A stretch of DNA of 64,000 bases from Candidatus Hadarchaeales archaeon. GTDB taxonomy: Archaea > Hadarchaeota > Hadarchaeia > Hadarchaeales > Hadarchaeaceae. The notes below the pieces were generated by a model, which was not told where the DNA came from, did no database searches, and saw only the letters and a list, made by a program, of their open reading frames with translations. Positions 15,685 to 19,089 of the stretch are shown piece after piece. Each line of letters begins with the position of its first letter. The first letter of the stretch is position 1. The stretch lies in contig JAVZGN010000001.1 of the NCBI GenBank assembly GCA_038872135.1, positions 64,147-128,146 on the forward strand. The letters are read 5' to 3'. A program made the translations under genes and the position numbers.

Positions 15685-15807
15685 ATGAAAATCGTCTGCC
15701 CAAGATGCAAACACGAGTGGAATTACCGTGGAAAATCAAAATACTACGTCACCTGCCCTCAGTGTCTTAGAAAGATAAAACTTGATGAACCGCCGGGGAG
15801 GAGATGA
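15685..15807 (+). CDS. 40-aa zinc-ribbon protein (absent from the ORF track); stop overlaps the minD-like start
   Basis: MKIVCPRCKHEWNYRGKSKYYVTCPQCLRKIKLDEPPGRR: CPRC...CPQC; SD-like AGGAG 6 nt upstream; TATA-like TTTTAAACT about 30 nt upstream. Confidence 0.5.
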   Translation: MKIVCPRCKHEWNYRGKSKYYVTCPQCLRKIKLDEPPGRR

Positions 15808-16601
15808 TGGTCAGAAGAAGGAGAGGGCTGGTGATGGGCATTTTCTCCGCAAAAGGAGGTGTGGGGAAGACAACCACAGTGGCTAATCTTGGCGCCGCAA
15901 TTTCGCAGAAGTTAAAGGGGAAGGTCATAATCACCGAGACGAACATGACAGCTTCAAACCTAGGGCTTCACCTGGGAATTGTTGACCCGCCGGTAGTAAT
16001 TCAGGATGTGGTTTACGGGAGGGTGAAGATAAGCGATGCGATAATAAAAACTGAGTATGGGCTGCATGTTCTCCCCGGCTCTGTAGCCTACACAGAAGAA
16101 GTCGGCCCGATAGACCTATCCCCGGTGATAGAGGAGCTGAGAAAAAAATACAGCTTGGTTCTGTTGGATACTGCTCCTGGGTTTGCCATGGAAGTGATTG
16201 CCGGGATGAAGGTCTCCGATGAAATCCTCGTCTGCTGCCAGCCCCATGTGCCAGCAATTGCCGGGACCCTTCAGACGTTCAGGATGGCTGACCGCATGAA
16301 GCTCCCCGTCTTTGGTGTTGTCATGACGAGGGTTGCTGGAAAGAGATACGAGATTCCGATAACAGATATCAGGAGAACCCTTGGCTGGCCAACGCTGGTC
16401 CAGATCCCGGAAGATGACATGGTGCCGGAGAGCATCACCAGGGGGGTGCCGGTGGTCATGTATTCTCCAAACTCTCCAGCCGCCGTCGAGTACAGGAAGC
16501 TGGCTCAGATGGTAATATCCCACTTGAGGGCAAGAAAGAGGAAACATTTGGGCGCAAGAAAGAGAAAAACCTCTAAGAGCACCGGTAAAAGGAGAAGGTG
16601 A
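15804..16601 (+). CDS. MinD/ParA-family ATPase with Arg/Lys-rich C-terminal tail
   Basis: Deviant Walker A SAKGGVGKTT; C-terminal tail RARKRKHLGARKRKTSKSTGKRRR. Confidence 0.8.
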   Translation: MMVRRRRGLVMGIFSAKGGVGKTTTVANLGAAISQKLKGKVIITETNMTASNLGLHLGIVDPPVVIQDVVYGRVKISDAIIKTEYGLHVLPGSVAYTEEVGPIDLSPVIEELRKKYSLVLLDTAPGFAMEVIAGMKVSDEILVCCQPHVPAIAGTLQTFRMADRMKLPVFGVVMTRVAGKRYEIPITDIRRTLGWPTLVQIPEDDMVPESITRGVPVVMYSPNSPAAVEYRKLAQMVISHLRARKRKHLGARKRKTSKSTGKRRR

Positions 16602-16613
16602 TGGGGGATAAAA

Positions 16614-17138
16614 TTGTTGTGCGTCCTACTTCTCGCCATCATCACTCCCATCTCAAGGCTGTATGCTCCTCTTCCAGAAGACCTCAGGAAAACTAGAAGA
16701 AAATTTCCTTTAAAAAAGGGTGTGCCGCAGATCCTGGAAGAAAAATCGCGCGAAACATTCAGAGCCCTTCTTAGCCATGGTCACGCCGGGCTCTGGATAA
16801 CGGCCACCCAGCCGGAAGAGGTCAGGAAAAAACACAAGCTTTTTCTCACACCAATTTTATGGTTGACAACCGAGAGAGATGATGAGCTGTCGATTGCTCC
16901 AACCAACCTTGAAAGGATACTGAAGGTTTGCCAGCACTTTCTATCAAATGCCAGAAATCCCGCTATTTTCATAGAATATCCTGAGACGATAATCTCTGCA
17001 AATGGGCTTGAGAAAACAATAGAATTTTTTAAGAAACTCAAGGAGCTGTGCAAGAAGGAAGAGGCCATACTCATCATCCGAGGAGCTGGGCTTGGAAAAA
17101 GAAAAATCCAAGAGATAAATGAGGCTATTTCTGGCTGA
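16614..17138 (+). CDS. Hypothetical protein downstream of the MinD-like ATPase
   Basis: ORF only; hydrophobic N-terminus. Confidence 0.3.
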   Translation: MLCVLLLAIITPISRLYAPLPEDLRKTRRKFPLKKGVPQILEEKSRETFRALLSHGHAGLWITATQPEEVRKKHKLFLTPILWLTTERDDELSIAPTNLERILKVCQHFLSNARNPAIFIEYPETIISANGLEKTIEFFKKLKELCKKEEAILIIRGAGLGKRKIQEINEAISG

Positions 17139-17370
17139 GGTGGCCCAGGGCTCTCCCTATCTCCAAATATGCCCAAGCCCAAATCAGACACTCGAAGCTC
17201 TTTATTAGATCTCCCTTCCCAGCAAAATGCTCTGAGTCGCTTCTGTAGGCGAGGATATTTTTCAAAAACTTTTCTCCCATTTCCGATGTCGCGGCGGTTT
17301 CGGCCAGGCTCTGGTCGAGCTTTTTACTCCACTTCTCAATTTCTCCCCGAAGCTCTTCCTCTAGATCCAT
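17125..17370 (-). CDS. Hypothetical 81-aa protein co-oriented with the dphB-nnrE fusion (10-nt overlap)
   Basis: ORF only; acidic and helical. Confidence 0.3.
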   Translation of the reverse strand: MDLEEELRGEIEKWSKKLDQSLAETAATSEMGEKFLKNILAYRSDSEHFAGKGDLIKSFECLIWAWAYLEIGRALGHLSQK

Positions 17371-18794
17371 CCATCCACCTCAAGGGGAATCCCGATATCG
17401 GCCACGATTAGCTCGCCAACAAATTCCGGCTTCTTTTGCAGCCCAATCTTAGGCCGGTGGAATGTTACGGTGGCATCGGCTTTGACTGCCTTTCCCAGAA
17501 TTTTTCCAGACTCTGCATCGAGGCCAGATGGAACATCGACAGCAACTTTAAAGGCCCTCGAGGAGTTTATCAGATCTATCACCGAAGCTTGGGGTTCTCC
17601 CACCTCCCCTTTTAACCCTGTTCCAAAAATTGCATCGACCACGGCCTCCGCGGAAGAAAGGGCTTCTCCAAGCTTTTCAAGGAAATCTCCGCCCATTGTC
17701 GTCAGCTGAACTCCTTTCAGCTGCTTCAGTCGGTTCCAGTTGAGCTCTGCCCTCTCGCTCCTGATGTCTTTTTCCTGTCCAACCAAGAAGACATGGACGG
17801 AGGCTCCACTGTTGGCGAGATATCTCGCCGCAACAAAGCCGTCCCCACCGTTGTCCCCTGTCCCGGCGGCCACGACAACTTTTCTGCAGCCTTTTCTAGA
17901 GACGAAATCTGCAACAGCCTTTCCGGCGTTCTCCATCAAAAGGAGTCTTGGGACCCCGGCTGCCTCAGCCCTCTCCTCAATCCTCCGCATTTCCGCCGGA
18001 GTTATGTATCTCTCACCCCTGGTTTTCATCCCGCCAAGAATCTGCAGGGCCTCCGCCTCCAGGAAGTGGAGATTTCCCGGAACGATGAGGATGTGGGGGG
18101 GAGGGCCAAAGTCCCGTGAAAGAAGATCTCTGACCCTGCCTGAAACCACAACCCCATCTTCGCTTCCAGCCCTAGCCACCCCAACAACAAGAGTGTCCTC
18201 GGTGAACACCCCTTTCTTGAACCTCCTTTCGAGCTCCAGCATCACCCTCAGCCCTTCATTGAGAGTCATTGCCCTTCCCTCTTCAACCCTCAAATCCATC
18301 AGAAGCAGTGTGTGGAGCCCCCTTCTCAGATTCTCCGCCAAAACATCATAGGGTCGGGAAGAAATGTTGTCCTCAAAAGGAACCGTGGCGGAAGCCCCGA
18401 ATTTGTAGCTTTGAAGACCCGCAACCCCGGCCGCGGCGGAGAAAATGCTTCCGGCGTGAATCACCCTTGTTTTTATCCCGCGTTTTTCTGCCCGCAGCCT
18501 GAGGTCAACGTGGGTTGTGGCAACCATCGGGTCACCGGGCACAAGGAGGACAACCTTTTGAGTTCTCGCTGCATCGAGAATTTCTTCGGGGTTTTCCTCG
18601 ATTTTTTTCCTGTTGACTACTTCCACCGGCTTTCCAACCATTCTTTCCAGCTCTGCTCTTGATAATCCAGGAACAATGCTTGTGTAAAGCTCTGCATACA
18701 CTTTATCGGCTGTTCTTGCCTCATCCAACCCATCCAATGAAATCCCGCGCCTGGTGAGGCCCAAGCCCACGAAGACGAGCATCTGGCAAGACAT
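17361..18794 (-). CDS. dphB: Fusion protein: diphthine synthase (DphB/Dph5) N-terminal domain plus NAD(P)H-hydrate epimerase (YjeF-N/NnrE) C-terminal domain
   Basis: N-terminal 260 aa matches archaeal diphthine synthase (GLGL, YAELYTS, GDPMVATTH, GLHTLL, PPHILIVPGNLH). C-terminal 215 aa carries YjeF-N motifs (LLLMENAGKAV, AGTGDNGGDGFVAARYL). One open frame with no stop between the two parts. Confidence 0.8.
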   Translation of the reverse strand: MSCQMLVFVGLGLTRRGISLDGLDEARTADKVYAELYTSIVPGLSRAELERMVGKPVEVVNRKKIEENPEEILDAARTQKVVLLVPGDPMVATTHVDLRLRAEKRGIKTRVIHAGSIFSAAAGVAGLQSYKFGASATVPFEDNISSRPYDVLAENLRRGLHTLLLMDLRVEEGRAMTLNEGLRVMLELERRFKKGVFTEDTLVVGVARAGSEDGVVVSGRVRDLLSRDFGPPPHILIVPGNLHFLEAEALQILGGMKTRGERYITPAEMRRIEERAEAAGVPRLLLMENAGKAVADFVSRKGCRKVVVAAGTGDNGGDGFVAARYLANSGASVHVFLVGQEKDIRSERAELNWNRLKQLKGVQLTTMGGDFLEKLGEALSSAEAVVDAIFGTGLKGEVGEPQASVIDLINSSRAFKVAVDVPSGLDAESGKILGKAVKADATVTFHRPKIGLQKKPEFVGELIVADIGIPLEVDGWI

Positions 18795-18960
18795 TTACAT
18801 CAGAATTTTAAAGCGGTTCTCCTCGGTCCTTTGACTTGGAGGCTACTGCCTTTCGCTTCATTTTCTCATTCGGCTTTTGGGGGGGAGTTCCAAGTCAGAC
18901 GCTTAAAGAAAAACCCTTGGCGCAGCAAACCTGATTGTGACCAACTGCATCACGCCAGAA

Positions 18961-18992: not shown

Positions 18993-19089
18993 GGGCCCGT
19001 GGCTCAGTCTGGTTAGAGCAGCCGACCCCTTTGGGGGGCTGAAGCTCTTAACCGGCAGGTCGGGGGTTCGAATCCCCCCGGGCCCGCCA
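18993..19089 (+). tRNA. tRNA-Lys(CUU) with a ~19-nt intron, CCA encoded
   Basis: Acceptor GGGCCCG/CGGGCCC, D-arm GCTC..GAGC, T-arm GGGGG-TTCGAAT-CCCCC. The mature anticodon arm GCCGG-CUCUUAA-CCGGC forms only after removing ACCCCTTTGGGGGGCTGAA, which sits inside the anticodon stem. Confidence 0.75.

Follow-up and report, generated by a model that had tools for sequence, protein, structure and literature searches.

A diphthine synthase fused to a predicted NAD(P)HX epimerase in a small Hadarchaeales lineage

The gene considered here lies on the minus strand of a 64,000-nucleotide (nt) stretch of the Candidatus Hadarchaeales archaeon assembly GCA_038872135.1 (contig JAVZGN010000001.1, positions 64,147 to 128,146; hereafter the window, whose own numbering is used throughout). 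It joins a diphthine synthase (Dph5/DphB) to an epimerase domain acting on NAD(P)H hydrates (NAD(P)HX epimerase, YjeF_N/NnrE) and is followed on the same strand by a DUF357 gene (Table 1). This is an undescribed architecture made of two known enzymes and confined to one small Hadarchaeales lineage. The initial annotation, made from the sequence alone, had reported a single continuous frame. The gene is indeed one open reading frame (ORF) without interruption, of 477 codons plus a stop, and the motifs on which that annotation relied are all present: GDPMVATTH at residue 87, PPHILIVPGNLH at about residues 232-243 and GTGDNGGDG at residue 311. The true start is probably the ATG at 18780..18782 (Met5), which would give a product of 473 amino acids (aa) and about 52 kDa. 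This choice follows from the homologues and the orthologue at locus L001, which begin with MLVFVGLGL, from the lack of an upstream ATG in L001, and from a conserved TTTAAAAT box upstream. The box resembles a TATA element and may represent a promoter, in which case the archaeal transcript would be leaderless or carry a very short leader.

The N-terminal half is a complete Dph5/DphB, as had been proposed. This enzyme (EC 2.1.1.98) uses S-adenosylmethionine (SAM) to trimethylate the 3-amino-3-carboxypropyl-modified histidine of elongation factor 2 (EF2) in the diphthamide pathway. Residues 5-253 match the NCBIfam dph5 model TIGR00522 over nearly its whole length (model positions 1-254 of 258; 8.5e-87, 290.8 bits against a cut-off of 114.3) and residues 5-224 match the Pfam TP_methylase profile (6e-20). 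The alignment with the Pyrococcus horikoshii diphthine synthase runs end-to-end (residues 2-253 of 265, 244 bits). All columns invariant over 12 Dph5 sequences are retained (G10, G12, L13, P86, G87, P89, A92-H95, R208-G210, L242 and H243), and the SAM-binding core of class III (tetrapyrrole-methylase fold), with its GxGL and GDPxxATTH motifs, is matched on the alignment to the solved diphthine synthase. The nearest relatives of this half are stand-alone Hadarchaeota proteins of about 263 aa. The stand-alone Dph5 of locus L090 (258 aa) runs just 7 residues past the fusion point, indicating that little of Dph5 was lost in the fusion.

The C-terminal half is a YjeF_N/NnrE domain that directly follows Dph5, again in agreement with the initial annotation. 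NnrE (EC 5.1.99.6) interconverts the R and S hydrates of NAD(P)H. Both family models are covered almost entirely: NCBIfam yjeF_nterm TIGR00197 by residues 264-470 (positions 4-205 of 206; 2e-55, 187.6 bits against a cut-off of 88.6) and Pfam YjeF_N PF03853 by residues 286-451 (positions 4-169 of 169; 5e-48, 163.7 bits against 24.9). The domain aligns with residues 13-213 of Thermotoga maritima Nnr (TM0922, PDB 2AX3; 108 bits), where DNGGDG (313-318), DAIFGTGLKGE (387-397) and DVPSG (420-424) face NNGGDG, DAIFGTGLRGE and DVPSG. We take NGGDG, DAxFGxGxxG and DxPSG to be the nucleotide- and K+-site motifs of Nnr, as in UniProt/HAMAP annotation. In Escherichia coli YjeF, the K192A substitution removes at least 95% of the epimerase activity (the primer encodes ITFIAL[K->A]PGLL; PMC5938422). 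Lys449 (TVTFHRPK449IGL) is the counterpart of this residue (ITFIALKPGL) and aligns with TVTFGVPKIG of TM0922. The nearest relatives of this half are stand-alone proteins of 219-230 aa from Hadarchaeota, then from Nitrososphaerales. The homologue list for this half omitted the entries P0001 and P0002 (described below), although both contain the query; pre-selection of candidates can drop true top matches.

The ADP-dependent dehydratase (YjeF_C/NnrD), which the initial annotation had described as not fused here, is indeed missing from the protein. The Pfam scan gave no match to PF01256 (Carb_kinase) in the fusion protein. Against the bifunctional Nnr model NF007856 (cut-off 703 bits) the protein reaches 89.9 bits, which indicates that the dehydratase half is absent, and only model positions 22-219 are covered. 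The polypeptide stops 7 residues past the epimerase domain. As the dehydratase domain was tested for and found absent, the fusion protein falls outside the bifunctional Nnr family (NF007856/PRK10565). A stand-alone NnrD of about 295 aa is the norm in Hadarchaeota, with a few bifunctional exceptions.

A search of 5.8 billion proteins found both Pfam domains together in only two entries, P0001 and P0002. P0001 is 100% identical to the window protein and is annotated as 'partial', a flag that stems from a 10-N scaffold gap; its cluster includes P0241 (473 aa), with two further NCBI accessions. P0002 (473 aa) is 81% identical. Two other assemblies (L002, GCA_038874375.1, and L093, GCA_038883755.1) carry the gene with 100% identity. 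L093 shows 12 mismatches to the window across 18 kb, which indicates separate assemblies of one population. The more distant orthologue L001 (GCA_046294655.1; about 79% DNA and 81% aa identity) keeps the continuous frame and the junction EALQI(L/F)GG-M-K. Between the window and L001, the ratio of nonsynonymous to synonymous divergence (dN/dS, Nei-Gojobori) is 0.053 in the Dph5 half and 0.093 in the YjeF_N half, at a dS of about 1.5-1.6, and 0.12 over a stretch of 30 codons at the junction. Purifying selection has thus kept the fused frame intact while synonymous sites diverged almost to saturation. When 1.84 billion representatives at 50% identity were searched exhaustively with phmmer, both halves again occurred together only in the P0001 cluster, and no paper in the literature searched links diphthine synthase or diphthamide with YjeF. 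The architecture, which had been presented as unrecognized, therefore appears undescribed. The other phmmer matches of odd length were Dph5-DUF357 fusions, a tandem Dph5 protein and YjeF_N with other partners. P0443 (374 aa), for example, combines YjeF_N with a 2-thiouracil desulfurase domain (PF04463). P0386 (558 aa, three matched stretches) was considered as a fusion in reversed order and proved to be a tandem double Dph5.

These data bear on the possibility, raised in the initial annotation, that a sequencing error masks a stop codon between two ordinary adjacent genes, and on the wider case of an assembly error or a frameshift. In relatives the genes overlap in different frames, so that a small indel error could in principle merge them, and the three identical assemblies (window, L002 and L093) represent one population and possibly one pipeline. 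However, the length difference between fused and unfused genes amounts to a net 14 nt (a 20-nt deletion in the model described below) and is no homopolymer slip, and the independent L001 assembly has the same junction. Moreover, both alternative frames at the junction carry stops, and dN/dS is low over both halves and at the junction itself. Taken together, the identical assemblies, the fused frame of L001, the selection and the stops in the other frames exclude a hidden stop or frameshift, and we regard such an artefact as barely conceivable.

The origin of the fusion can be read from relatives in which the genes are separate. Loci L005, L006, L007, L008 and L009 carry dph5, yjeF_N and DUF357 in this order on one strand, with a 22-nt overlap between dph5 and yjeF_N; in L090, L091 and L092 the arrangement is the same with a 4-nt ATGA/GTGA overlap. 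GTDB species representatives were also scanned for dph5, and the best 80 loci were screened by tblastn; among these, yjeF_N lies between dph5 and DUF357 in L010, L012, L018, L020 and L037 (the last on the same contig as L005), and dph5 and yjeF_N occupy different frames in L010, L012 and L020. L018 was examined as a second in-frame fusion and rejected: its apparent ORF crosses a masked N-stretch, leaving the gene order the same and the junction uninformative. In total, ten distinct unfused Hadarchaeota lineages show the order dph5-yjeF_N-DUF357 as separate genes. Every close stand-alone YjeF_N homologue with a readable context adjoins dph5, many of them on the same short contigs. The local gene fusion envisaged in the initial annotation is thus directly visible, since relatives hold both genes adjacent and overlapping.

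Comparison of the junctions identifies Met256 (codon 18027..18029) as the former yjeF_N start codon, at the site (about 18000..18030) that had been singled out for verification. In the junction alignment A2, the distance from the codons for dph5 EAEAL to those for yjeF_N ITPxEM is reduced by a net 14 nt in the fused genes. Relative to the unfused relatives, these genes lack the last 7-13 or so dph5 codons, the dph5 stop codon and the yjeF_N Shine-Dalgarno (SD) sequence. L090 can serve as a model: removal of the 20 nt GCTCCAAAGGGGATGGTGAG turns ...FAG APKGMVR* / MRLD... into ...FAG-MRLD..., exactly the fused topology. Unfused relatives carry an SD-like GGAGGTG, GGAGGCGG or GGTGA a few nt 5' of the yjeF_N start, within the last dph5 codons. 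The fused genes offer only a GGCGGG that directly abuts Met256, the nearest GGAGG lies 20 nt upstream, and comparison of the upstream sequences revealed no spaced SD element before Met256.

We propose that the ancestor carried an operon dph5-nnrE (yjeF_N)-DUF357, in which nnrE began, in another frame, within the last codons of dph5 and was translationally coupled to it. A small deletion, in the simplest model a single 20-nt event, would have eliminated the variable Dph5 tail, the stop codon, the frame offset and the nnrE ribosome-binding site, and would have left the nnrE ATG (Met256) in the dph5 frame. With its SD sequence lost, the epimerase would now be made mainly as part of the fusion protein. 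It might instead be supposed that the fused ORF is real and that a free 222-aa NnrE is also, or mainly, produced from the internal Met256 ATG. The original start is kept as Met in both fused lineages, and the G-rich GGCGGG abuts it. However, the well-spaced GGAGGTG or GGTGA of the unfused relatives has been deleted, GGCGGG has no spacer, and the nearest GGAGG is at a distance of 20 nt. In the same operon the DUF357 start retains a properly spaced GAGGTG, indicating that internal genes of this operon use SD-led initiation. Such dual expression is therefore very unlikely.

The linkage from which the fusion arose is old in appearance and unevenly distributed. Among the best 80 dph5 loci, adjacency of dph5 and DUF357 is almost universal in Hadarchaeota, and in about 18 Hadarchaeota loci tblastn detected no yjeF_N within ±6 kb of dph5. 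None of about 55 dph5 loci from Bathyarchaeia, Nitrososphaerota and Methanomethylicia showed yjeF_N linkage by tblastn. A bifunctional nnr gene found 1.8 kb from dph5 on the opposite strand in L063 was taken as chance. In a single-protein neighbour-joining tree of Dph5, of low resolution, the window, L002, L093 and L001 form one clade, while the 'adjacent' and 'absent' states are interleaved across the remainder of the phylum. This pattern fits a single fusion event on an old but patchy dph5-yjeF_N adjacency.

The AlphaFold2 model computed from alignment A4 reaches a mean predicted local distance difference test (pLDDT) score of 82.6, with most of the epimerase domain above 90, and a predicted template modelling (pTM) score of 0.53. 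The last helix of Dph5 (244-253) and the first of YjeF_N (266-278) are connected by residues 254-265, which are modelled as a coil of low confidence. The pTM value suggests two folded domains for which no confident interface or fixed interdomain packing is predicted. The product would thus comprise two autonomous catalytic domains joined by a flexible linker of about 12 residues: an N-terminal SAM-dependent diphthine synthase acting on EF2, and a C-terminal NAD(P)HX epimerase serving a separately encoded dehydratase. We consider it likely, as judged from sequence comparison, that this lineage-specific fusion gene encodes a bifunctional protein whose catalytic domains, with the predicted activities of Dph5 and NnrE, are independent of each other. 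We infer that each domain has kept its activity and works by itself, and that the main effect of the fusion is to fix the 1:1 co-expression already provided by translational coupling, creating no new pathway.

Several points weigh against this interpretation. The Dph5 part of the structural model contains low-confidence loops (116-130 and 209-214), which probably result from the shallow alignment available for that half. No NnrD/Carb_kinase gene was detected by tblastn in the 64-kb window (best E 0.77), and the Hadarchaeota NnrD matches that were traced to contigs belong to genomes other than the fusion-bearing ones. Internal initiation at Met256 may be possible from the sequence. Finally, the conservation of dph5-nnrE-DUF357 over part of the phylum may mean more than co-expression.

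This last point opens the question of functional coupling, in which the role of YjeF_N would be tied to diphthamide or EF2, with Dph5, YjeF_N and DUF357 forming a module of which the fusion would be a Rosetta-stone signal. In variants of this idea, the pocket for ADP-ribose or NAD(P) derivatives may be used on NAD-derived chemistry at diphthamide, or the epimerase may have a 'moonlighting' function. The arrangement dph5-yjeF_N-DUF357 with overlapping, SD-coupled starts recurs in the ten unfused lineages, Dph5 also fuses repeatedly with the third operon member, DUF357, and the fusion is held under strong purifying selection. In addition, the Hadarchaeota epimerase is mostly split from the dehydratase, in contrast to the 97% of prokaryote genomes with both activities in which the two are fused (PMC5938422). 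Experimental arguments for a second role of the epimerase, outside repair, have been published (PMC5938422). However, they point to vitamin B6, not to translation. Furthermore, the linkage is limited to part of one phylum: the 18 or so Hadarchaeota loci mentioned above have dph5-DUF357 without yjeF_N, and outside the phylum none of the approximately 55 loci shows it. The two enzymes have no common substrate, the structural model predicts no interface between them and the literature searched holds no paper linking them. Overlapping neighbours fuse easily through a small indel whatever their function. Functional coupling is therefore unlikely. The more specific proposal of a Hadarchaeota Dph5-YjeF_N-DUF357 module, in which an epimerase split from its dehydratase would serve EF2/diphthamide or the long-suspected second function and the Dph5 fusions would be Rosetta-stone evidence, is quite unlikely. 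If true, the module would offer a way into both the enigmatic second role of NAXE/YjeF_N and DUF357, a family found in nearly all archaea. The reading of two independent enzymes in one polypeptide is better supported.

Table 1. Positions of the fusion gene, its parts and its neighbours in the window
Feature	Position	Strand	Basis or remark
Fusion gene, maximal ORF	17361..18794	-	ORF listing
Probable fusion coding sequence, 473 aa from Met5	17361..18782	-	homologue starts; NCBI product of 473 aa
Diphthine synthase (Dph5/DphB) domain, residues 5-253	18036..18782	-	TIGR00522; P. horikoshii alignment
Fusion junction/linker, residues 254-265 (GG-M256-KTRGERYIT)	18000..18035	-	junction translations; DNA alignment
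NAD(P)HX epimerase (YjeF_N/NnrE) domain, residues 264-470	17385..18005	-	TIGR00197; PF03853; T. maritima Nnr alignment
Shine-Dalgarno-like GAGGTG	17376..17381	-	5 nt upstream of the DUF357 ATG (17370), inside the end of the fusion gene
DUF357 gene, 81 aa	17125..17370	-	downstream operon partner; 10-nt overlap with the 3' end of the fusion gene
TATA-box-like TTTAAAAT	18805..18812	-	22 nt 5' of the Met5 ATG; kept in L001 at 26 nt
tRNA-Lys(CTT), 97 nt	18993..19089	+	divergent, about 200 nt upstream of the fusion gene
DUF835 and ParA/CbiA-like ATPase genes	15804..17138	+	converge on the DUF357 end of the operon

The DUF357 assignment rests on PF04010, called on the orthologues in L001, L002 and L093, and on a match to PDB 2OO2 (2e-19); the family corresponds to arCOG01224. 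DUF357 lies directly downstream of dph5 or dph5-yjeF_N in L001 (3808-4053), L003 (6785-7024), L005 (6447-6692) and most of the Hadarchaeota loci L011-L069, and at least five separate clusters contain proteins in which it is joined to Dph5. A 2019 review (PMC6393860) counts DUF357 in 463 of 524 archaeal genomes and places it among the unknowns of highest priority; Dph5 is not mentioned there. DUF357 might have an accessory role in diphthamide synthesis.

The stand-alone NnrD of Hadarchaeota repeatedly adjoins, in divergent orientation, a class-III aminotransferase gene encoding a pyridoxal phosphate (PLP) enzyme, often with an ornithine/diaminopimelate (Orn/DAP) decarboxylase gene in addition (L003 3367-5708, L094 2533-4891, L095-L097, L007 6898-8250). 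An Aminotran_3 gene also lies just past dph5-yjeF_N-DUF357 in L007 and L005. The NnrD-aminotransferase neighbourhood fits the published link of NAD(P)HX repair genes to vitamin B6 enzymes (PMC5938422). One unfused lineage (L003 4821-6807, L004 4143-6129) shows the order YjeF_C (NnrD)-ribosomal L40e-dph5-DUF357. An ancestral nnrD-dph5-nnrE cluster, suggested by these two loci, was discarded: no other dph5 locus has a Carb_kinase gene nearby except L063, where it is on the opposite strand. The proximity of NnrD to dph5 in L003 and L004 is probably a coincidence.

On its upstream side, the fusion gene is flanked by a tRNA-Lys gene with a probable intron, and the same tRNA-Lys (94% identical) precedes the fusion gene of L001. 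On the other side, the pair of DUF835 and ATPase genes is syntenic with the L003/L004 lineage (L003 7046-8400), suggesting that the fused and the L003/L004 lineages are fairly close relatives.

The fusion provides a worked example of how overlapping, translationally coupled genes can become a multidomain protein by one small deletion and then be kept by selection. It also concerns annotation. Public records already hold these proteins, labelled only 'diphthine synthase', so that the 473-aa records miss the NAD(P)HX epimerase half and metabolic reconstructions of these metagenome-assembled genomes would wrongly score NnrE as absent. Beside the dehydratase and the plant oxidase discussed below, the partners described in PMC5938422, Dph5 is a third fusion partner of YjeF_N, an enzyme whose physiological role is debated. 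The dph5-yjeF_N-DUF357 neighbourhood is a source of hypotheses and suggests a functional link only weakly.

The closest known system is the unfused Hadarchaeota operon, represented by Candidatus Hadarchaeum sp. GCA_049969415.1 (L005) and JGI Ga0315282_10000926 (L090). Its three genes are arranged as here, in order as well as orientation, with DUF357 overlapping or abutting the end of yjeF_N, and protein identity to the two halves of the fusion is 57-66%. However, its dph5 (258-263 aa) and yjeF_N (220-230 aa) form distinct ORFs in different frames, with an overlap of 4 or 22 nt and an SD sequence in front of yjeF_N, whereas here the ORFs are merged and this SD sequence is gone. Compared with stand-alone DphB (P. 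horikoshii PH0725, PDB 1VCE/2DEK among others), the N-terminal 253 residues align end-to-end with the invariant positions retained. The fusion protein lacks the variable last 7-13 or so residues and carries a 220-aa C-terminal epimerase domain in addition. The bifunctional Nnr/YjeF proteins (E. coli YjeF, T. maritima TM0922) have a homologous epimerase domain with which the nucleotide/K+-site motifs and the catalytic Lys are shared. However, their partner is a C-terminal ADP-dependent dehydratase, while here it is an N-terminal Dph5. In the plant oxidase-epimerase fusion (Arabidopsis At5g49970/PDX3), YjeF_N is joined to an apparently unrelated pathway, which has been argued to be a sign of a second function (PMC5938422). 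That partner is pyridox(am)ine-phosphate oxidase (PPOX), an enzyme of vitamin B6 salvage, and the fusion is eukaryotic and widespread in plants. Here, by contrast, the partner is an EF2 SAM methyltransferase in one archaeal lineage. Finally, in the Dph5-DUF357 fusions (P0101, P0369, P0370, P0372 and P0379; 338-363 aa), Dph5 is likewise fused to a downstream operon neighbour. These involve the small DUF357 partner and recur in several clusters, whereas the YjeF_N fusion belongs to one cluster only.

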